NCBI GenBank assembly: GCA_965221695.1
Contig: OZ244905.1
Span: forward strand, 2,189,384-2,253,383
DNA length: 64,000 nt
Source: Gammaproteobacteria bacterium
GTDB taxonomy: Bacteria; Pseudomonadota; Gammaproteobacteria; Eutrophobiales; Eutrophobiaceae
Direction: 5' to 3'
Under the pieces are notes generated by a model. The model saw nothing but the letters and a program-made list of their open reading frames with translations, ran no database searches and had not been told where the DNA came from. A program made the position numbers and the translations under genes. Shown here piece by piece: positions 10,468-62,707 of this stretch (the first letter of the stretch is position 1; every line of letters begins with the position of its first letter).

Positions 10468-10626
10468 GGGCGGGGGCGCGACCCGTTTCATCTGAGAACT
10501 TGGCTGCGACCCGGAACCGCTTGTGTGCTAAACTAGGACTGGAGTGTAAACAGTCCGACAGCTCTTGAGCATGGTATGAGCAGGGAACATCACATGCCGC
10601 CGGCTGGAGGCAGAGGTTCCGAAGAA

Positions 10627-11700
10627 ATGCACAGTGTTGTAACCCCCCCGGATTTTCGGCTGCCGCCGGAACAGGTTCCCGAGACGGTTGTCGAACACCT
10701 CGCGAATGAGGAGCGGGACGCGTGTATGCGTCAGATCAAGCGGCTGCTGCGGGAACAGAATGCCGTATTGGTCGCGCATTACTACACTGACCCGGATCTG
10801 CAACGGCTCGCGGATGAAACCGGCGGCCATGTATCCGATTCCCTGGATATGGCGCGCTTTGGCCACGAATCCGACGCGACCACGCTGGTCGTCTGCGGCG
10901 TGCGTTTCATGGGCGAGACGGCAAAGATACTGAACCCGGAAAAACGGGTGCTGATGCCGGAACTGCAAGCTGATTGCTCCTTGGACCTGGGTTGCCCCGG
11001 TGACGCGTTCAACGCCTTTTGCGACAGCTATCCGGACCGTACCGTCGTGGTCTATGCCAATACCAGCGCCGCAGTGAAAGCGCGCGCCGACTGGATGGTC
11101 ACGTCTGGCAGCGCGGTGGAAGTGGTCAGACACCTGGCGGAACAAGGAGAAAAAATCATCTGGGCGCCGGATAAGTACCTGGGCGAATATGTGCGTGAGC
11201 AATCCGGCGCGGACATGATGTTATGGCAAGGTAGTTGCATCGTCCACGAGGAGTTCAAGGGCAGGGAGCTGGGAGAACTGAGACAAAAACACCCCGCCGC
11301 CAAGGTATTGGCGCACCCGGAATCACCGGCCCCGGTCATTGCCCAGGCCGACGTGGTCAGTTCCACCACGGGCATCATCAAGGCGGCGACCGAACTGGCG
11401 TCCGATACGTTCATTGTCGCAACCGATAAGGGCATCTTCTACAAGATGCAACAGGCCGCGCCGGACAAGACCTTTATCGAAGCGCCCACAGCCGGCCGGG
11501 GAGCCACCTGCAAAAGTTGCGGCCACTGCCCGTGGATGGCGATGAACAGCCTGACAAAGCTGCTGGAAACACTCCGTTCGGGCGCCAACGAGGTATTTGT
11601 CGAAAAGGAGATCATCGAACGCGCCCGCATACCGATAGAGCGGCTGCTGAACTTTGCCGCGCAACGCAAACAGGTCATCTACGGCAACAGCGACGCCTGA
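10627..11700 (+). CDS. nadA: Quinolinate synthase A
   Basis: The product is colinear with E. coli NadA ([52 protein letters not shown]). Starting at MHSVV matches the E. coli N-terminus. A longer ORF from 10576 is possible. Confidence 0.9.
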
Positions 11701-11742
11701 CCCAAGCGTCATAATCGCACCGCCCAGATTTTTTCCGTTTTT

Positions 11743-11758
11743 TGTGAGTTTTATCACA
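11743..11758. promoter_or_regulatory. CRP/Vfr-type binding site candidate
   Basis: TGTGA-GTTTTA-TCACA matches the TGTGA-N6-TCACA consensus exactly. It sits in the nadA-yebC intergenic region. Confidence 0.4.
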
Positions 11759-11816
11759 AAAACGCGAAAGTTTTCTTTGCCGAACAGAACATCTTTTCTC
11801 AGAATGGGCTGATAAA

Positions 11817-11849
11817 AAACCCGTCCCCCTAAGGAGACGGGTTTATTCT
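11817..11849. terminator. Hairpin with flanking A/T tracts, a candidate bidirectional terminator
   Basis: AAACCCGTC...GACGGGTTT is followed by ATTCT on the plus strand and by a T-run on the minus strand. Confidence 0.45.
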
Positions 11850-11947
11850 GCCCAGGTGGTGAAATCGGCAAACACAGGGGACTGCCACTCCCCCGGCCTC
11901 TGTAGCGAAACCTACATGCCTTACGGGTTCGAGCCCCGTCCTGGGCA
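11850..11947 (+). ncRNA. tRNA-shaped structured RNA element, copy 1 (class-II-like long variable arm, anticodon loop CU-GCC-AC)
   Basis: It has a 7 bp acceptor stem (GCCCAGG/CCTGGGC), U8, a D-loop with GG, an anticodon stem GGGGA/TCCCC with a 7 nt loop (U33, A37), a 29 nt variable arm (TGTAG/CTACA stem), a T-arm ACGGG-TTCGAGC-CCCGT and discriminator A. CCA is not encoded directly. Confidence 0.45.
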
Positions 11948-12006
11948 CACCATAGGCGCCAACAGCCATTATCGTGGCCGGCGCAGGACTTGTCAATATG
12001 ATAAAA

Positions 12007-12039
12007 AAACCCGTCCCCCGAAAGGGACGGGTTTATTCT
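12007..12039. terminator. Hairpin with flanking A/T tracts (second copy)
   Basis: The 11 bp perfect stem AAACCCGTCCC / GGGACGGGTTT has loop CCGAAA. Loop changes relative to copy 1 preserve the stem. Confidence 0.45.
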
Positions 12040-12137
12040 GCCCAGGTGGTGAAAACGGTAAACACAGGGGACTGTCACTCCCCCGGCCTCTGTAGTCAGA
12101 CCTACATGCCTTACGGGTTCGAGCCCCGTCCTGGGCA
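12040..12137 (+). ncRNA. tRNA-shaped structured RNA element, copy 2 (anticodon loop CU-GUC-AC)
   Basis: The architecture is the same as copy 1. The six substitutions relative to copy 1 all fall in the D-loop, anticodon loop and variable-arm loop. All stems are identical. Confidence 0.45.
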
Positions 12138-12296
12138 CACCATAGGCGCCAACAGCCATTATCGTAGCCGTACAGGGGGCTGTCAACAACATTTCGCGTA
12201 CAGAAATCCGCGCGCAATATATCAAGATATGCGTCTGCCCTGACTTGAATTATAAAACCATAAATGGGAACATTCCGTTAAAACCCGGAAAGAGAT

Positions 12297-13043
12297 ATGG
12301 CAGGACACAGCAAGTGGGCGAACATCCAGCATCGCAAGGGCCGACAGGACGCCAAGCGAGGTAAATTATTCAGCAGGTTGATCCGCGAGGTCACGGTATC
12401 CGCCCGGCTCGGCGGCCCCGACCCGGACGGTAACCCGAGGTTGCGCGCGGCCATCGACAATGCGCTGGCCGGCAACATGCCCAAGGACACCATCGAACGG
12501 GCTGTGAAGCGCGGCGCGGGCGGCGCGGAAGGCGAAAGCCTGGAAGAAGTGCGCTACGAAGGATACGGACCGGGCGGGGTCGCGGTAATGGTTGATTGCA
12601 TGACTGACAACCGTAACCGCACTGTCGCTGAGGTGCGGCACGCCTTCTCCAAATGTGGCGGCAATCTTGGCACTGACGGTTCCGTCGCATACCTGTTTTC
12701 CAAGGTTGGGCAGCTTTCCTACCCGTCTGGCACCGATGATGACGCCTTGTTGGAGGCTGCGTTGGAAGCGGGCGCGGAGGATATTGCAAACAATGATGAC
12801 GGAACCGTTGACGTCTTGACCACACCGGAAGACTTTCTCGACGTCAGGGACAGCTTGGTTGAGACAGGTTTCCCGCCCGATGCCGCAGAGGTAACGATGC
12901 GCGCGGCAACCGGGCAGACGCTGGACTTGCGTGGCGCGCAGACCATGACGTTGCTACTGGACACGCTGGAAGACCTGAACGATGTGCAGAAAGTGTATTC
13001 CAACGCGGATATTCCCGATGAAATCCTGGCCCAGCTTGATTGA
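12297..13043 (+). CDS. yebC: YebC/PmpR family DNA-binding transcriptional regulator
   Basis: The N-terminus reads [32 protein letters not shown]. The classic yebC-ruvC linkage is present. Confidence 0.95.
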
Positions 13044-19514: not shown

Positions 19515-20675
19515 ATGCGGGCTGAAGCACAGGCGGTCATCCCGCTCATTGTCGCCCTGGCCGGCGTTAACGGATCGGGCGCGCAGGAGCAGGTCACCGA
19601 CCCCGGGATGAGCGTCGAGCAACGCCTCGATCGTATTGATAGCGCGCTCTCCAACCAGGGCCTGCTGGAAATGGTGCAGCAGCTTCATGCCTTGGAAATG
19701 GAGGTCAATCGCCTGCGCGGCGAGACGGAAACGCTAAACCACGCGCTTGAGCAATTGAAAAAGCGGCAGCGTGATATGTATACGGACATGGACATGCGCA
19801 TACAGCGTTTCGAAGACCCGGATACCACACTCATCGGCGCCGCGCCGGCGAACGACGAGCCGCCGTTGCAAACCCTGTCGCCGTTTGCAGAGGCAGAACC
19901 AACAGGCGCCGCGCAGGCCGAAACGCCATTGACCCTGGAACTGGTCGGGCAGGAATCGGACCGCGCCGGCGCCGGCATACAGCCTTTAGCCACTGTTCCG
20001 GACCAATCGGCGGCGCAGCCGGGTATTGAGACCGCCCCGCCGCCAACTACGGGAACCAGCCGCACGCAAGAAGCAATCGCTCCCTTGACAGCTCCCTCGG
20101 ACGAGCCGCCGCAACAGGCTATTGATCCTGCTTTGGCGCCCGGACCCGCTCCGGCGCAGGAGATGGCGTTGTCTGGACCACGAGAAGACATTTCCGCAGT
20201 AACGCCGACGCAGCAACCGGCAGCGCCAGGAATGTCCGCGAGCATGGCCACGGGAGCGCTAGAGGAAGCGAGTCCGGAACAGATTGCGGCGGAATACCAG
20301 GACGCCTTCAACCTGCTGAAACAGTCCCTGTATGAGCGTTCGGTGACGGCGTTTCGGGAATTTCTGGCGCGCCATCCGAACAGCGAACACGCCGGCAATG
20401 CCCAGTTCTGGCTGGCCGAGGCGCACTACGTGAATGGTTACTTCGAGCAGGCGCTGGTCGAATATAACACACTGGCGCAGCGCTACCCCGATAGCCGCAA
20501 ACTCTCCCAGGCAAAACTGAAGGCCGCGTTCTGCCAGTATGAACTGGGCCGAGTAGACCCTGCCAGGCAGCGATTGGTGGAAATCATTCAGCAATATCCG
20601 GACACGACGGCCGCCAGCCTGGCGCAGAACAAGCTGGCAGAGATCGCAGCGGCGGCTACTCTCCCAGTTGAATAG
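19515..20675 (+). CDS. cpoB: Cell division coordinator CpoB (YbgF), carrying a large Pro/Ala-rich insertion
   Basis: The product has a signal peptide, an N-terminal coiled coil and a C-terminal TPR domain (YQDAFNLLK...AQFWLAEAHY). An insertion of about 150 aa, rich in P/A/T/Q, sits between the two domains. Confidence 0.8.
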   Translation: MRAEAQAVIPLIVALAGVNGSGAQEQVTDPGMSVEQRLDRIDSALSNQGLLEMVQQLHALEMEVNRLRGETETLNHALEQLKKRQRDMYTDMDMRIQRFEDPDTTLIGAAPANDEPPLQTLSPFAEAEPTGAAQAETPLTLELVGQESDRAGAGIQPLATVPDQSAAQPGIETAPPPTTGTSRTQEAIAPLTAPSDEPPQQAIDPALAPGPAPAQEMALSGPREDISAVTPTQQPAAPGMSASMATGALEEASPEQIAAEYQDAFNLLKQSLYERSVTAFREFLARHPNSEHAGNAQFWLAEAHYVNGYFEQALVEYNTLAQRYPDSRKLSQAKLKAAFCQYELGRVDPARQRLVEIIQQYPDTTAASLAQNKLAEIAAAATLPVE

Positions 20676-56597: not shown

Positions 56598-57500
56598 TCA
56601 GGAAAATCGGGCCAGGTGTTCCCTGACTTTTTCCGTAACGGTATTCACGGCGATGGTATCGATGTTCCGATTCGGGGCCGTATGCCAGGCCGCTAGAGGT
56701 CCCCAGGGGTGGTAGCGTTCCGGGTTGCCGGGTCCAAACAGGGTAAACGAACAGGTGTTGACCGCGGCGGCAATGTGGCCGAGGCCGGAGTCATTACCGA
56801 GAAACAGGGTCATGCGTTCCATCACTGCGGCGGTCTGCAACAGTGTCGCGCGACCGCACAGGTTGATACAGGGCAGGCGCACGTGTTCGGCAATGAGTTC
56901 CGCCTGCCGGTTATCAGCTTCGTTGCCCAGCAGCGCCAGCGCGTCGAACTCGTCGCTGAGTTCATTGGCCGCCAGCGCGTAGTTTTCCGCCGGCCAGATC
57001 TTTTTTTCCCAGTTAGCGCCGGGACCGATGCACAACCACCTGTTGCCGCGCAGTTGCCGGCAGACTGTTGCGGCATAATCCTTGTCCGCCGGTCCCAGCC
57101 ACAATCCGACAGGCGGTATTTCCCGGCTTCCGATTAGTGGCGAAAGAGTGGCAAAATGTTGCTCCACCGCGTGGGGTTGCCCGCCCCTGCCTGGCTTGGT
57201 GAGCCGTTTTTCTGCCCTGACCAGGCGGGCGAGGACATCCGTGCGCAAATCAACCACGATCTCATAGCGTTTGCGGCGCAATTCCCACAGCAGAGCCGGC
57301 GCCCCGCGTAACCACCGTTGCTTTTGTTTATGATAAATCTCGCCCCGGTACGGACAATGCAGGAACAGCATGGACGAACGCGCATCACCCACGATATCAA
57401 TGGTCGCGGTCTCATCATACCGATGCAAGGACTCCAATACCGGAGTCGTCAGCAACGCATCGCCGATATTGCTCAGCGTGATGAACAGGAAGTTGCTCAT
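56598..57500 (-). CDS. Glycosyltransferase family 9 (heptosyltransferase family)
   Basis: The product reads MSNFLFITLSNIGDALLTTPVLESL. An AGGGAA SD lies 5 nt upstream. An alternative TTG start lies at 57515. Confidence 0.75.
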   Translation of the reverse strand: MSNFLFITLSNIGDALLTTPVLESLHRYDETATIDIVGDARSSMLFLHCPYRGEIYHKQKQRWLRGAPALLWELRRKRYEIVVDLRTDVLARLVRAEKRLTKPGRGGQPHAVEQHFATLSPLIGSREIPPVGLWLGPADKDYAATVCRQLRGNRWLCIGPGANWEKKIWPAENYALAANELSDEFDALALLGNEADNRQAELIAEHVRLPCINLCGRATLLQTAAVMERMTLFLGNDSGLGHIAAAVNTCSFTLFGPGNPERYHPWGPLAAWHTAPNRNIDTIAVNTVTEKVREHLARFS

Positions 57501-58861
57501 TATTTCCCTATACAAAAGCGGGAGAAGATTTCCCCGAGCAGGTCGTCAGCGCTATACTCGCCGGTGAGTTCGCCGAGTTTGCGTTGTGCCCGGGACAGGT
57601 CTTCGGCAAACAGTTCGGGTGCGCGCGTGTGCTGGTACTGCTGTGCGGCCTGTTCCAGCGCTTCTTCGACTGCGTGCAGGATGTTGAGGTGGCGGGTATG
57701 GGCAATGAAGCTGTTCTCCGATACGTCCGCGCCGGCCACCATGGTCGTTATTTCCTGTTTGAGCGCGTCCACGCCCGCGCCCGTCATGGCGGAGATATAC
57801 AGTTCACGCGTGTCGTTTGCCGATGAGGGTTTGCCGGCGTCATGGCCGGTGAGGTCGATCTTGTTAAACACGTACAACAGTTTTTCCGCGCCCAGGTCTG
57901 CGGCGATGCTCTTGAGTTCACCGATATCTTCCAGGGTCGCATCGGCGATGAGAATGACCACGTCCGCGTTGTTTGCCGCTGACCTGGCGCGCCGGATGCC
58001 TTCCTGCTCGACCTGGTTGCCGGTTGTTCTTATCCCTGCGGTGTCGGTGATGCGGACCGGTATGCCGCCAATCAGGATCTGTTGCTCGATGGTATCCCGG
58101 GTGGTGCCGGGCAACGGCGATACAATCGCCCGCTCAATTTCGGCGAGGCGGTTCAGCAGGCTGGATTTCCCTGCATTGGGTTTGCCGATGATCGCAATGT
58201 TCAAGCCTTCCGCCAGCAGCCTGCCGGTTTCGGCGCCGGCGCAAATTTCGGCCAGGCAGCGCCGGCAAGCCGATAACCGGTCTTGCAGTTCAGCCTGTTC
58301 CGTAGAGCCAACCTCCTCCTCCGGAAAGTCCAGCGTCGCCTCGACGAACATGCGCAACTCGATAAGCCTGTTTGCCAACTCATCCAGTCGGGAGGAAAAC
58401 GCGCCCTGCATTGAGCGGGCCGCGCTGGATGCAGCCTGTTCCGAGGCGCTGCTGATCAGGTCCGCGACGGCCTCTGCCTGCAACAGATCGATCTTGTTGT
58501 TAAGAAAGGCCCGTTCGCTGAATTCGCCGGGGCGCGCATAACGGGCGCCCAGCGACAGGACGCGTTGCAACAGCAGGTTCATTACCACCGGCCCGCCGTG
58601 GCCGTGCAGTTCGGCGATGTCCTCGCCGGTATGTGAATCCGGCCCCTGGAAAAACAGCGCCAGGCCGCGATCCAGGACTTGTCCTTGCGCGTCGAGAAAG
58701 GTTGTCGGCCGGGCTTCCCGGTGTCCGGGCTTGGCCCCGCATATTGCCTTGACGATGTTGCCGCTGTCCGGCCCGGAGAGCTTTACGATCCCCACCGCTG
58801 CCTGTCCCGGCGCCGTGGCTATGGCCGCAATGGTATCTGTCTGTTCCGGCTTGCCGACCAT
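57500..58861 (-). CDS. mnmE: tRNA modification GTPase MnmE
   Basis: The N-terminus reads TDTIAAIATAPG. The G-domain has GKPNAGKSSLLN, and the C-terminus ends ...CIGK. The start is ATG at 58861 with GAGG 6 nt upstream. The ORF-track start at 58933 adds 24 aa. Confidence 0.9.
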   Translation of the reverse strand: MVGKPEQTDTIAAIATAPGQAAVGIVKLSGPDSGNIVKAICGAKPGHREARPTTFLDAQGQVLDRGLALFFQGPDSHTGEDIAELHGHGGPVVMNLLLQRVLSLGARYARPGEFSERAFLNNKIDLLQAEAVADLISSASEQAASSAARSMQGAFSSRLDELANRLIELRMFVEATLDFPEEEVGSTEQAELQDRLSACRRCLAEICAGAETGRLLAEGLNIAIIGKPNAGKSSLLNRLAEIERAIVSPLPGTTRDTIEQQILIGGIPVRITDTAGIRTTGNQVEQEGIRRARSAANNADVVILIADATLEDIGELKSIAADLGAEKLLYVFNKIDLTGHDAGKPSSANDTRELYISAMTGAGVDALKQEITTMVAGADVSENSFIAHTRHLNILHAVEEALEQAAQQYQHTRAPELFAEDLSRAQRKLGELTGEYSADDLLGEIFSRFCIGK

Positions 58862-58871
58862 TGCTGCCTCC

Positions 58872-60512
58872 TCACTTGGAAGCGGAAAGGCCCTCTTTTT
58901 CCAGGTTTTTTGTGATGAACCACTGCTGGGCAATGGACAGGATGTTGTTGGTTACCCAGTACAACACCAGCCCGGATGGGAAAAAAGCGAAGAACACCGT
59001 GAAGATGAACGGCAGGGCCTTCATCACTTTTTCCTGCAACGGGTCCATGGGGGCGGGGTTGAGTCTCTGCTGGATCAGCATGGTGGCCCCCATGATGATC
59101 GGCAGGACGAAAAACGGGTCCTTGCTGGAGAGGTCCTTGAGCCAGAAAATAAAGTCAGCCTGGCGCAATTCAACGCTTTCCAGCAGCACCCAGTACAGGG
59201 CCAGGAACACGGGAATCTGCACCAGGATCGGAAAACAACCGCCGAACGGATTGATTTTCTCCTCCTTGTATATCTGCATCATCGCCTGATTGAGGCGGGC
59301 CCGGTCTTCCTTGTAGCGGTCGCGCAGCGCGACTATCCGCGGTTGCACCCGGCGCATGTTCGCCATGGACCGGTAGCCCGCGGCAGACAGGTGGTAGAAC
59401 AGCAGCTTGAGCAGGACGGTCACCAGGATGATGGCCCAGCCCCAGTTGCCGGTCAGGCCGTGCAAGCGTTCCAGGCACCAGAACAGCGGTTTGGCCAGGA
59501 ACCACAGCACGCCGTAGTCAACGGTCAATTCCAGTCCTTCCGCCAGGGTTTCCAGCACGGATTGCTGCTTGGGGCCGATGTAAAGATGGCCTGTCAATTC
59601 TCCCTTTTGCCCGGGAGGGATAGTCAGGGTCGGGGAAACGCTGCCTATCGAATAATACCGGGAAGAGAACGAGCGGGTATAGTAACGATACGTGGCCTCC
59701 GTGTCCGAAGGCAGAACGGCGGTCAGGAAATAATGCTGTATCATCGCTACCCAGCCATTATTGACTTGCACGTCCGCATCCTTGTCTTCCATATCGCCGA
59801 AACTGATTTTTTCGTAGCGGTTGTCAGGAGTGGAGAGCACCGCGCCGGTGTACGTGTATAGCAGTCTTCTGCCTTCCCTGGACGGATCATCCCGTTTTAT
59901 CTGGGTGTACTGGCGGCCTTCCCAATCGCCGCCGGAAGCGTTATCGATGATGTACTTGATCTGAACCCGGTAGGAACCGCGTTCGAACACGAATACCTTG
60001 GTTACCGCTATGCCCTCTGCGGAAGACCACTTCAACGGCACCTCCAGCCGCTCCCTGCCGGCGTCCAGGGTGTAGGTCTGCCGTTCCGTCGTGAACGTGT
60101 CCTTGTGAGTCGGCGCCACTTCGCCGACGATACCGCTTTGTATCACGTGGTACAGGGACGCGGAGTCATCCAGCAGTACGAAAGGCTGATCTTTTCTGTC
60201 CAACGATACCGGATAATCAGGCAACTCGGCATAGACGATGGTTCCGCCTTCGTCGATTTTAATGCGCAGCACGTCCGTCTCAACTGTCACGACAGCGCTG
60301 CCGGCGCCGTCCGATCTCTCCTTGGTCGGGAAATCGGGCGTAGACGGCTCGTCGGGTTTTATCTGTGGAATTCCCGGATCTTCATCAACAGGCGCCGATG
60401 CCTGCCCGGCAGCGCCGGACTGCGCGGCGCCATAGTCCCGCTGCCATGCTTCCCACAACATGATGGAGACCAGCGACAGCGCCAGGATGAGAATAAACCG
60501 CGGTGTATCCAT
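58872..60512 (-). CDS. yidC: Membrane protein insertase YidC
   Basis: The 546 aa product has an N-terminal TM, a large periplasmic domain and a conserved C-terminal 5-TM core. Confidence 0.9.
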   Translation of the reverse strand: MDTPRFILILALSLVSIMLWEAWQRDYGAAQSGAAGQASAPVDEDPGIPQIKPDEPSTPDFPTKERSDGAGSAVVTVETDVLRIKIDEGGTIVYAELPDYPVSLDRKDQPFVLLDDSASLYHVIQSGIVGEVAPTHKDTFTTERQTYTLDAGRERLEVPLKWSSAEGIAVTKVFVFERGSYRVQIKYIIDNASGGDWEGRQYTQIKRDDPSREGRRLLYTYTGAVLSTPDNRYEKISFGDMEDKDADVQVNNGWVAMIQHYFLTAVLPSDTEATYRYYTRSFSSRYYSIGSVSPTLTIPPGQKGELTGHLYIGPKQQSVLETLAEGLELTVDYGVLWFLAKPLFWCLERLHGLTGNWGWAIILVTVLLKLLFYHLSAAGYRSMANMRRVQPRIVALRDRYKEDRARLNQAMMQIYKEEKINPFGGCFPILVQIPVFLALYWVLLESVELRQADFIFWLKDLSSKDPFFVLPIIMGATMLIQQRLNPAPMDPLQEKVMKALPFIFTVFFAFFPSGLVLYWVTNNILSIAQQWFITKNLEKEGLSASK

Positions 60513-60524
60513 AATATGATCGGA

Positions 60525-60764
60525 CTAGGGAACGGGGTCTACGCCGCCCGGGTGAAACGGATGGCAACGGCATATGCGTTGAATGCTGAGCCGCAAGCCG
60601 CGCAAGGTCCCATGTTTTTCAATGGCTTCACAGGCAAAGTTCGAGCAAGACGGGTAAAAGCGGCAGTTCATGCCCAGGAAAGGGCTGACAAAGCGCTGAT
60701 AACAGCGGATTGCTCCGGAGATTGTCCTGGAGATTATTGCGCGCATCGCAGAATCCTTTGCCAA
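60525..60764 (-). CDS. yidD: Membrane protein insertion efficiency factor YidD
   Basis: The product reads [34 protein letters not shown]. Confidence 0.8.
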
Positions 60765-61081
60765 TGGGCCCTGAGAGACTGGTTCATTATCCTGCTTTCA
60801 TCCGGCTTTATCTGTTGCTGCGCCAGGACCACGATGTCAAGGCCTGACAATATATCAGTGTGTGCGCGGAAACTTTCCCGTATGGTGCGTTTAACTTTGT
60901 TTCTGGTTACCGCGCCCTTCACCGCTTTCCTGGAAATCGCCAGACCGAGCCGCGCACAACCCTTATCGTTTCTGCGCGCCAGGACAACAAACTGCGAATC
61001 CCGGGAGCGGCAGGATGTCTTAAATACGTTATTGTAATCCGCTGCGCTGTTAAGTCTTTGTTTTCGCAGGAAACGGCTCAA
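60734..61081 (-). CDS. rnpA: Ribonuclease P protein component
   Basis: The 115 aa product is basic. A TTG start overlaps the rpmH stop. Confidence 0.85.
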
Positions 61082-61212
61082 GCGGACAAGCGCTTCCTGC
61101 CTTTGGCTCTGCGGGACTTCAGTATTTGTCGCCCGGCTTTGGTACGCATGCGAATGCGAAAGCCATGGCGGCGTTTTCGCTTGATATTGCTGGGCTGGTA
61201 TGTACGTTTCAT
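61078..61212 (-). CDS. rpmH: 50S ribosomal protein L34
   Basis: The 44 aa product reads [44 protein letters not shown]. It is absent from the ORF track because it is shorter than 60 aa. Confidence 0.9.
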
Positions 61213-61390
61213 TGGCTATCTTTGCAGTTTCCGAAAATCGCAGGCATTTTACTTATATGGACGCCGGGTTGTCAACGAGGGCAGACCCTGCTTCCGGTTC
61301 TGTAATGATATTGTATTGGATATGTCCGTCCAACGGGTATAAACTTGAATGTCCCGTTCCCGTTTTATTCCGATGAGGCGCAGTTCGTAG

Positions 61391-62707
61391 ATGTCAGCTT
61401 GGAAATTATGTCTTGACCGGCTTGCCGGAGAACTGCCTCCGGAGCAGTTCAATACCTGGATTCGTCCGCTGCAGGCGATAGAAGACAAAAACAAGTTGCG
61501 CCTGCTCGCGCCGAACCGGTTTGTACTCGACTGGGTCAATGAGAGATACCTGCAGCGCATCGATGAATTACTGCGTTCGGAAAACCGGGGCGGCAAGCTG
61601 GCCTTGTCTCTCGAGGTCGGCAGCCAGAAAACAGGGACCAGACAGCCGAAGAACAGGAAAGAGGCGAGTTCCGGCCGCAACTACCTGCCGGAGAACCTTA
61701 ACCGCAGCTACAGGTTTACATCCTTCGTGGAAGGCAAGTCGAACCAGTTGGCGCGGGCCGCGGCGATACAGGTCGCGGAAAACCCGGGCACTGCGTATAA
61801 CCCGCTGTTCATGTGCGGCGGCGTAGGTCTTGGAAAAACCCATCTTATGCATGCAATAGGCAATTCGATCCTGGAACACCGGCCGGGGATGAATGTTGCC
61901 TACCTGCACTCCGAGCGGTTCGTCGCCGACATGGTCAAGGCATTACGCCACAATACTATTGATGAGTTCAAACGAAATTACCGGTCTCTGGACGTGCTGC
62001 TGATCGATGACATCCAGTTCTTTGCCGGCAAGGACCGGTCGCAGGAAGAGTTTTTCTATACATTCAATACCTTGCTGGAAAGCAAAAACCAGGTAGTGCT
62101 GACCTGCGACCGTTATCCGAAAGAAGTTGACGGCATCGAAGGCCGCTTGCGATCCCGTTTCAGTATGGGACTGACTGTTGCGATAGAACCGCCGGAATAC
62201 GAAACCCGGGTTGCCATCGTCAAATCCAAGGCGGAAGACACGGAGGTTGACCTGCCGGACAATGTCGCGTTTTTCATTGCCAAGCGCTTCGTGTCGAACG
62301 TGCGCGAACTGGAGGGCGCGCTGAACCGGGTCATCGCCAATTCCCGGCTGACCGGAGAACCCATAGACATTGAGTTCTGCCAGCATGCGTTGCGCGATTT
62401 GTTGCTGTTGCAGGAACGCCAGGTTACCCTGGAAAACATCCAGAAGGTCACTGCGGGGTATTACAAGATCAAGGTCGCGGATTTGCTGTCAAAGCGGAAA
62501 AGCCGCTCTATCGCGCGCCCGCGGCAACTGGCGATGGCCTTGGCGAAGGAATTGACCAACCACAGCTTGCCTGAAATCGGCGACGCCTTCGGGGGGCGCG
62601 ACCATACCACGGTTTTGCACGCCCACAGGAAAGTGGCGGAACTGCGGCAAGACGATAACAGGGTTGAGGAAGACTACAAAAACCTGCTCAGCATCCTGAC
62701 GATGTAG
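61391..62707 (+). CDS. dnaA: Chromosomal replication initiator protein DnaA
   Basis: The product has an AAA+ Walker A motif ([15 protein letters not shown]) and a C-terminal DNA-binding domain ([20 protein letters not shown]). Confidence 0.95.

Follow-up and report, generated by a model that had tools for sequence, protein, structure and literature searches.

Tandem tRNA-Leu-like genes with glycine and aspartate anticodons, each with a predicted antisense RNA, between nadA and yebC in a gammaproteobacterium

Two tRNA-like genes between nadA and yebC

We examined a stretch of 64,000 nucleotides (nt) of contig OZ244905.1 from a gammaproteobacterium of the family Eutrophobiaceae (assembly GCA_965221695.1), hereafter the window, in which the region flanked by nadA (10576-11700, Pfam NadA) and yebC (12297-13043) carries two tandem tRNA-like units. 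The units form a direct repeat (11814-11980 and 12004-12170) of 94% identity; a preliminary description of this DNA had recognised the tandem repeat and given units of ~186 bp, whereas the spacing is 190 bp. On the + strand, tRNA-like gene 1 occupies 11850..11947 and tRNA-like gene 2 occupies 12040..12137. The Rfam tRNA model (RF00005) matched them with 52.1 and 53.3 bits, respectively, over model positions 1-71 of 71 (E ~1e-8 for both, with the whole window as search space; the gathering threshold of the model is 29 bits), in agreement with the earlier proposal of tandem class II tRNA-shaped RNAs at this site. In both genes the acceptor stem has 7 bp and is followed by U8, the D stem has 3 bp and the mismatch A13.A22, the D loop contains G18G19, the anticodon stem reads GGGGA/UCCCC, the variable region measures 29 nt, the T arm is ACGGG-UUCGAGC-CCCGU and the discriminator is A73; both are thus class II with a 7/5 arrangement of acceptor and T stems. 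The anticodon loop reads CUGCCAC in gene 1 (anticodon GCC, Gly, 11884-11886) and CUGUCAC in gene 2 (GUC, Asp, 12074-12076), and the extra-arm loops are CGAAAC (11906-11911) and UCAGAC (12096-12101). The preliminary parse (7-bp acceptor, U8, GG D-loop, T arm, 29-nt extra arm, discriminator A) and its reading of Gly and Asp anticodons on a class II shape were both reproduced. Six positions differ between the 98-nt cores of the two copies: the extra-arm loop has three of them, the D loop two and the anticodon one (position 35). The stems are identical, also as first described.

Folding of the 98-nt core as a single sequence gave an unremarkable energy (z -1.2 to -1.3), and the fold is supported by the covariance model and the relatives described below, not by this energy. 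ARAGORN reported 0 tRNA genes in the 64-kb window and none at any copy of the three groups of relatives (A, B and C), probably because of the extra arm of 29-33 nt, since a gene with a shorter arm at L008 is called (loci from other genomes are given L numbers). That gene (1601-1693), in a metagenome-assembled genome (MAG) of the Xanthobacteraceae, is a class II-shaped tRNA with the anticodon UGG (Pro) that scores 59 bits with Rfam and is reported as tRNA-Pro by ARAGORN. When the minus strand of the window was searched against Rfam at E<=1, nothing except terminator-like noise was returned; the matches to ncr1175, Betaproteobacteria toxic sRNA and anti-hemB were far below threshold and were rejected as terminator look-alikes. 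We also rejected a coding sequence at the units, since extra-arm loops of 6 or 7 nt shift the frame and neither strand has a conserved AUG or Shine-Dalgarno sequence. Gene callers and simple listing of open reading frames (ORFs) place spurious ORFs of ~200-300 amino acids (aa) across the arrays (2381-2983 in L034 and L035, 5778-6380 in L010 and 11323-12225 in the window), so these loci are likely to be mis-annotated as hypothetical proteins.

Antisense signals, relatives and variable loops

The minus strand of each unit carries a predicted, near-consensus sigma-70 promoter, TTGACA-17-GATAAT (11 of 12 positions matched), 20 nt beyond the 3' end of the tRNA. Antisense promoter 1 lies at 11968..11996 and antisense promoter 2 at 12158..12186; they are the only two matches to this pattern in the window, with 0.00 expected by chance. 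Their hexamers are identical and about half of the 17-nt spacer is different, a pattern of kept hexamers and differing spacers that is also seen across relatives, and the repeat homology stops at the -35 box of promoter 2. At the opposite end of each unit, and again on the minus strand, lie predicted intrinsic terminators of the antisense RNAs. The first (11814..11847) is a hairpin followed by U6, 2 nt from the tRNA 5' end, and the second (12004..12037), with 12 pairs and a T-rich tail, received a terminator score on the minus strand; in both units U6-7 follows the hairpin on the minus strand. The hairpin at 11814..11847 is more stable on the minus than on the + strand (-23.0 vs -19.3 kcal/mol). 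In copy 1 the hairpin bases that can form a G.U pair on the minus strand are mismatched (C.A) on the + strand, and the compensatory changes that the preliminary description saw in this hairpin were not upheld. The strong hairpin itself had been correctly noted, its role as a predicted minus-strand terminator missed. In the same way the conserved 26-nt tail of the description is real, and its nature is different: it holds the -10 box and 5' leader of the predicted minus-strand promoter. The tail at 11948..11967 would serve on the minus strand as the 5' leader of antisense RNA 1 (predicted start ~11961) and on the + strand as the tRNA 3' trailer (CA-CCA).

Because this promoter and terminator bracket the tRNA, an RNA of ~150 nt complementary to the whole tRNA is predicted from each unit (~11961->11814 and ~12151->12004). 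The predicted minus-strand RNA of 148 nt would form a mirror cloverleaf, a terminal hairpin and a UUUUUU end (z -3.55). Each 190-bp unit therefore appears, from its sequence, to encode a convergent sense/antisense RNA pair. A cis-antisense RNA starts at a promoter and ends at a terminator of its own, which lie on the opposite strand and enclose the partner RNA; this is the arrangement predicted here, and it is conserved in relatives.

We found ~35 relatives of the units in uncultured gammaproteobacterial MAGs. When one genome per species was scanned with a sequence pattern, 22 loci were obtained, and a metagenome scan added 4, whereas a pattern scan of viral contigs gave 0 matches and BLAST of the unit against plasmids and phages none. 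The relatives score 45-55 bits with the Rfam tRNA model and parse into three groups. Group A comprises the window, L010, L018, L020, L021, L022, L023, L024 and L026, to which L034, L035, L050 and L052 were added later. Its members all belong to one clade of uncultured gammaproteobacterial MAGs and have a common hairpin, tRNA body and antisense promoter, a conserved CCAWAGGC motif in the tail, and anticodons GCC or GUC only. Groups B and C come from sponge/coral-type gammaproteobacterial or Pseudomonadales MAGs and show ~75% identity with group A; they have a textbook tRNA-Leu D arm, a distinct GC-rich hairpin, CCA in register, and the anticodons GGC, CGC, GCC or GGA. The search pattern also matched ordinary tRNA-Leu(UAA) genes, including L025, which ARAGORN calls Leu. 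The L025 gene has the same acceptor stem as the window genes, and its D arm, anticodon stem and T arm are nearly equal to theirs; this match of the body indicates that the family is derived from tRNA-Leu. A73 is present in 32 of 32 parsed members.

Among 29 distinct sequences, 98.6% of the cells of the cloverleaf alignment are paired and seven pairs have changed on both sides, as compared with 31-48% pairing in slid controls. These values agree with the selection on RNA structure that had been proposed from the two copies. Random substitutions in the stems, named in advance as the mark of an RNA without function, were looked for among the relatives, and the stems stay paired. Compensatory changes are present in every helix that varies, the 7-bp acceptor stem and the 5-bp T stem are both supported by covariation, and RNAalifold recovers the five-arm cloverleaf unaided. 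Six of six single-side changes give G.U pairs on the + strand, and the only two C.A cells both occur in L019, the most degenerate copy. In group A the variable columns of the D and T loops are the canonically variable tRNA positions 16, 17, 20, 57, 59 and 60, while U8, A14, G18G19, A21 and T54-A58 are invariant; groups A, B and C all keep U8, A14, G18G19, U33, A37, TΨC and A73 despite their ~75% identity. Covariation of the cloverleaf and loop variation by tRNA rules thus argue for selection on the + strand.

Other parts of the unit point to the minus strand. The hairpin is more stable on that strand in nearly every member, and in group B (-35 kcal/mol on the minus strand, -27.6 on the + strand) three G.U pairs are possible only there. 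The TTGACA-17-GATAAT hexamers recur at the same spacing with unrelated spacer sequences in L018, L020 (eight times), L022, L023, L024, L026 and L050. Group B has TTGACC-17-(TGg)CATGGT with two different spacers, and its conservation ends at that -35 box; in group C we recognised no antisense promoter, and the terminator is present. As far as can be read from sequence, both strands are under selection, the + strand for the cloverleaf and the minus strand for the hairpin and promoter.

The loops show a further pattern. L010, which shares synteny with the window, carries three units where the window carries two. Between the orthologous last units of the two loci there are four differences, all in the 6-nt extra-arm loop, and 0/178 elsewhere; between the first units, three differences fall in the loop, one at position 32 of the anticodon loop and three in the hairpin. 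Given that the surrounding tract is 95-100% identical, ~6 changes would be expected outside the extra-arm loop and ~0.2 inside it. The eight copies of the L020 array are likewise most diverse in two places, the extra-arm loop and positions 32, 35 and 38 of the anticodon loop. Extra-arm loops are all distinct within each genome, and some recur between genomes (CGAAAC, UAAUAG, UAAGAG and UCAGAC). Judging from general tRNA structure, the hypervariable extra-arm and anticodon loops would be the two loops exposed in the folded tRNA. Mutagenesis of the extra-arm loop by a diversity-generating retroelement was considered and rejected, as A hardly ever occurs at positions 1 and 6, and no reverse-transcriptase gene was seen in the ORFs examined near the units. 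Inversion of the loop by template switching was rejected because the loops stay A/C-rich on the + strand. Overall, the structure given in the preliminary description has stood, and what it missed are the opposite-strand promoter and terminator, the sense/antisense pairing and this hypervariable loop.

Proposed function and alternatives

Upstream of the units lies a TGTGA-N6-TCACA palindrome (11743..11758), a putative CRP-type site that is the sole perfect match in the window (0.08 expected by chance). Its centre is ~61 bp upstream of the predicted + strand start, and in CRP-dependent class I promoters the site is centred near -61.5 from the start. The palindrome is conserved upstream of units in L010, L018, L020 (seven times), L021, L023, L024, L026 and L050. 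A putative weak sense promoter, TTGCCG-17-CAGAAT (11777..11805, + strand, 8 of 12), was read from the sequence and has its predicted start at ~11812, just before the hairpin; it scores below the threshold of our promoter scan. Relatives carry TATATAAAAT/TAAAAT at the corresponding place, and the window and L010 are 55-69% identical in the sense -10 region.

We interpret each unit as a compact convergent sense/antisense module on a tRNA-Leu-derived gene, which would produce an antisense-gated Leu-type tRNA reading Gly/Asp codons. The anatomy of the unit is well supported, and for the function, which we infer from it, we would give about an even chance. Under this proposal a constitutive antisense RNA would pair with the tRNA precursor, making first contact at the exposed loops, and the pairing would block maturation of the precursor or trigger cleavage of the duplex. 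The sense strand would be driven by a weak, activator-dependent CRP-type promoter, with transcripts reading through the leaky + orientation of the hairpin, and the tRNA would accumulate only upon sense induction or loss of the antisense RNA. Leucyl-tRNA synthetase (LeuRS) does not read the anticodon, and the codons read by GCC/GUC anticodons are GGY/GAY. The mature RNA would most likely be leucylated by LeuRS and would then carry Leu to GGY/GAY codons or compete there; seryl-tRNA synthetase (SerRS), suggested at first as the charging enzyme, is not favoured, as the body and A73 point to LeuRS. Since one stretch of DNA specifies the two partners, any change in the loop would affect them simultaneously, and such coupled changes could let paralogous pairs become mutually specific.

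Several points weigh against this proposal. The promoters, starts and terminators on either strand are sequence predictions. On the sense strand the -10 box of the window (CAGAAT) is weak and diverged from that of L010, and the putative promoter is found only ahead of unit 1, unit 2 being preceded by the antisense promoter of unit 1. The hairpin and U-rich tract in the sense leader could also terminate sense transcripts. In the window units CCA is out of register (A73-CA-CCA), so 3' maturation would need RNase Z/BN and the CCA-adding enzyme; it is in register in ordinary tRNA genes of the clade (tRNA-Met in L018, tRNA-Arg in L047), as it is in L020 and in groups B and C. Charging with Leu is suggested only by the resemblance to tRNA-Leu. 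The anticodon loops, on the other hand, look like those of real tRNA-Asp and tRNA-Gly, and a degree of cognate charging with Gly or Asp may occur. The invariant anticodon stem among the relatives is an artefact of the search pattern, and the G.U strand test for the cloverleaf counts few events (6 vs 2). Finally, disrupted and deleted copies elsewhere, described below, are as expected of dispensable or selfish elements.

A bolder form of the same idea is an RNA-only, toxin/antitoxin-like switch, in which a Leu-accepting tRNA for GGY/GAY codons, silenced by a constitutive full-length antisense RNA, would be released by cAMP-CRP or by loss of the antisense RNA and would cause Gly/Asp-to-Leu missense across the proteome, with the loops as kissing-loop addresses. 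We consider this form unlikely. If it were true, RTX proteins would be hit hardest, one-third of their codons being targets, and the extra-arm and anticodon loops as 'addresses' would keep many paralogous pairs orthogonal in each cell.

Also unlikely is an explanation in which only the ~150-nt minus-strand RNA has a function: it would act in trans as a small RNA with the variable hexaloop as its seed, and the tRNA likeness of the + strand would reflect ancestry and shared helices. The best-defined signals are indeed on this strand, each unit having a terminator and a promoter that matches 11 of 12 positions, the hairpin is selected there, and the full minus-strand RNA has the folding score given above; the out-of-register CCA and weak sense promoter of the window would also fit. 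This explanation does not account for loop variation that follows the rules of tRNA tertiary interactions, for the wobble pairs of the cloverleaf on the + strand, or for the retention of U8 to A73 by three groups only ~75% identical. Nor does it account for the in-register CCA of groups B and C and L020, or for the conserved CRP-type box and TATA-like box upstream on the + strand.

It is also possible, and in our estimate improbable, that the units are genuine extra tRNA-Gly(GCC) and tRNA-Asp(GUC) genes, cognately charged, which support translation of Gly/Asp-rich RTX proteins, with the long arm and antisense RNA tuning supply. Outside the nadA-yebC site, group A units adjoin RTX or type I secretion genes (L018, L020, L021, L022, L023, L026 and L050/L052): they lie just downstream of RTX genes in L018, L021, L022 and L050/L052, among RTX fragments in L020 and near type I secretion genes in L026. 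In these neighbouring RTX genes GGY and GAY together make up 32-37% of codons, as compared with 10-14% in housekeeping genes of the window. The anticodon loops would suit this role, CUGUCAC being presumably the loop of E. coli tRNA-Asp and UUGCCAA that of tRNA-Gly(GCC), and the determinants of AspRS are G10, G34, U35, C36 and C38. Against it, A73 is found in all members, whereas bacterial GlyRS needs U73 and AspRS needs G73, and the body is that of tRNA-Leu. A tRNA-Gly or tRNA-Asp has a variable loop of 4-5 nt and U73 (Gly) or G73 (Asp); the units have 29 nt and A73, and only their anticodon loops match. Moreover, there is no RTX-motif ORF in the 64-kb window, and in groups B and C, where the anticodons are those of Ala and Ser, the composition of the neighbours does not match, their ORFs showing no Ala, Ser or Gly enrichment.

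We think it similarly improbable that the units are a selfish or decaying tRNA-derived repeat, a mobile module of no cellular function that is transferred passively by recombination. Their patchy occurrence at the nadA-yebC site would agree with this. In the close relatives L027, L032 and L033 (RuvB ~91% identical) nadA and yebC are separated by only 124-134 nt and no unit is present; L010, L034 and L035 have a three-unit array and the window has two units. A recombination tract also spans the site: window and L010 are 95-100% identical from nadA onwards (10576-12486 in the window), with an abrupt drop to ~80% about 190 nt into yebC, which we read as marking a recent recombination tract that carried the tRNA-like array. 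Elsewhere there is an inserted element (L022, L052) and there are deletion remnants (L047-L051). The opposing evidence is that orthologues show 0/178 differences outside the extra-arm loop where ~6 are expected, that every varying helix has compensatory changes, and that the promoters retain their hexamers although their spacers have drifted. Neither a transposase nor terminal repeats were found for the units, nor was a target duplication seen between nadA and yebC, where sequences with and without units fail to align.

Least probable by far is a DNA site for a neighbouring tyrosine recombinase with the extra arm (TGTAG/CTACA arms and a variable 6-bp spacer) as crossover core: inverted arms and spacer do seem to resemble recombinase cores, and a Phage_integrase-family gene of ~322 aa lies near units in L018 and L023 and is always paired with an RTX gene, in contexts rearranged within one sample, but no recombinase was seen near the window units, the window has no RTX-motif ORF, most recombinase loci retrieved have no unit within 4 kb, the A/C-rich strand bias of the loop argues for selection at the RNA level, and promoters, terminator and tRNA rules would be left unexplained. 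Each of these alternatives explains a part of the observations, and none explains the conservation of tRNA rules in combination with a conserved antisense promoter and terminator.

The antisense-gated Leu-type tRNA that we favour can be compared with several known systems. Like bacterial tRNA-Leu, the units fold as a 7/5 cloverleaf with a long extra arm, their D stem has 3 bp and a mismatch at 13.22, and they carry A14 A15, the G18G19 spacing, U48 and A73. They differ in having GCC or GUC anticodons (groups B and C also GGC, CGC and GGA) and not NAG/YAA, in an extra arm that contains an internal loop and, at 29-33 nt, has roughly double the usual length, and in a dedicated antisense promoter and terminator; in the window the CCA is also out of register. 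In type I toxin-antitoxin systems (e.g. Ibs/Sib) and in plasmid copy control, a strong constitutive promoter drives a fully complementary small RNA with its own terminator, and specificity resides in a few variable loop nucleotides. The units are likewise paralogous within a genome, and changes in their loops would hit both partners at once. Unlike a type I system, the 'toxin' partner would be a tRNA and not an mRNA for a small hydrophobic peptide; the units contain no ORF.

Natural tRNAs whose body and anticodon disagree are rare (nev-tRNA, allo-tRNA and tRNA-ProX) and are central to the question of regulated mistranslation. Nematode nev-tRNAs have class II, Leu-type bodies with Gly (CCC) or Ile (UAU) anticodons and are leucylated in vitro (PMC3333845, PMC4300185), so the earlier statement that class II architecture is never combined with such anticodons is not supported (PMC3333845). 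They share with our units the Leu-type class II body, a non-Leu anticodon and the potential to act as missense decoders. In contrast to the units, with their GCC/GUC anticodons, nev-tRNAs are eukaryotic, are transcribed by Pol III and have neither an antisense partner nor a hypervariable extra-arm loop, and they are not related to the units by descent. The allo-tRNAs of Mukai et al. (2016) are defined by a D arm like that of tRNA-Sec and by acceptor/T stems of 8/4 or 9/3, are charged by SerRS, often lie in accessory regions near toxin-antitoxin genes, and have been proposed to be missense suppressors or regulatory RNAs (PMC5389517). They are similar to the units in being bacterial and in combining a long extra arm with many non-cognate anticodons. 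With 7/5 stems, a Leu-type D arm and A73, the units are not 'allo-tRNA-like' as had been suggested (PMC5389517). The tRNA-ProX family of Streptomyces and Kitasatospora is a natural bacterial family in which body identity and anticodon disagree, and this disagreement causes regulated mistranslation (PMC10404621, PMC11415595). In concept the units would act as nev-tRNAs and tRNA-ProX do. It differs in a class I Pro body, A33 and often a dedicated ProRSx, and antisense RNA is unreported for it.

In the literature searched we found no bacterial 7/5 class II family with such anticodons and no antisense-paired tRNA module. The family would add a Leu-type example in Gammaproteobacteria and would be the first found, in that literature, with built-in antisense control and a hypervariable extra-arm loop, and its genes are missed by standard tRNA finders. 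Our reading predicts two small RNAs with defined ends, charging by LeuRS, Gly/Asp-to-Leu peptides and loop-specific pairing.

Neighbouring genes and damaged copies

Besides the RTX genes, group A units lie near a tyrosine recombinase gene (L018, L023) and near defence-type genes (AAA_15/21 with DUF3226, NYN and Fic). In one sample (ERZ25070917; L047-L052), and also in L036-L040, the ~322-aa tyrosine recombinase gene is always divergently paired with an RTX gene. The six contigs of ERZ25070917 have a common recombinase/dxs side, and their RTX genes (1143-1214 aa) run into two contexts, either type I secretion genes or hpnH/glycosyltransferase/MlaC/MlaA. From the arrangement of these contigs it looks like the RTX genes are shuffled by the recombinase, or large inversions have occurred. 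The first 8 kb of L020 (1-8000) are almost free of ORFs and contain the eight tRNA-like units and two RTX-repeat ORF fragments within a duplication of ~4.36 kb. Other repeats occur in the same 8 kb, among them a 90-nt unit present 11 times and a 74-nt unit, with a variable hairpin loop, present 14 times.

Two kinds of damaged copy were noted. An element of 162 nt, bounded by perfect terminal inverted repeats of 20 bp (AGCCCGGATTTCTCGCCAGG), interrupts the D loop at one and the same position in L052 (5660-5821) and L022 (1149-1310); it could be a miniature inverted-repeat transposable element with a site preference, or an inherited insertion. In L047-L051 (~20414-20614) the CRP-type site, TATA-like box, hairpin and first 13 nt of the tRNA are followed directly by the antisense promoter. 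The tRNA body has been deleted in these remnants between short GGTGA repeats, and both promoters are kept.

Three group B loci (L003, L005 and L015) have VapC-like (PIN-type) and antitoxin-like ORFs, judged from sequence only, within 1-2 kb of the tRNA-like genes, and large ORFs that differ between the loci are also found within 1-2 kb. Conservation between group B loci ends ~110 nt after the tRNA, which suggests the junction of a variable island. Within the window itself, N-terminal sequences resembling mnmE, yidC and dnaA at 57500-62707 indicate that this stretch is probably close to the chromosomal replication origin.

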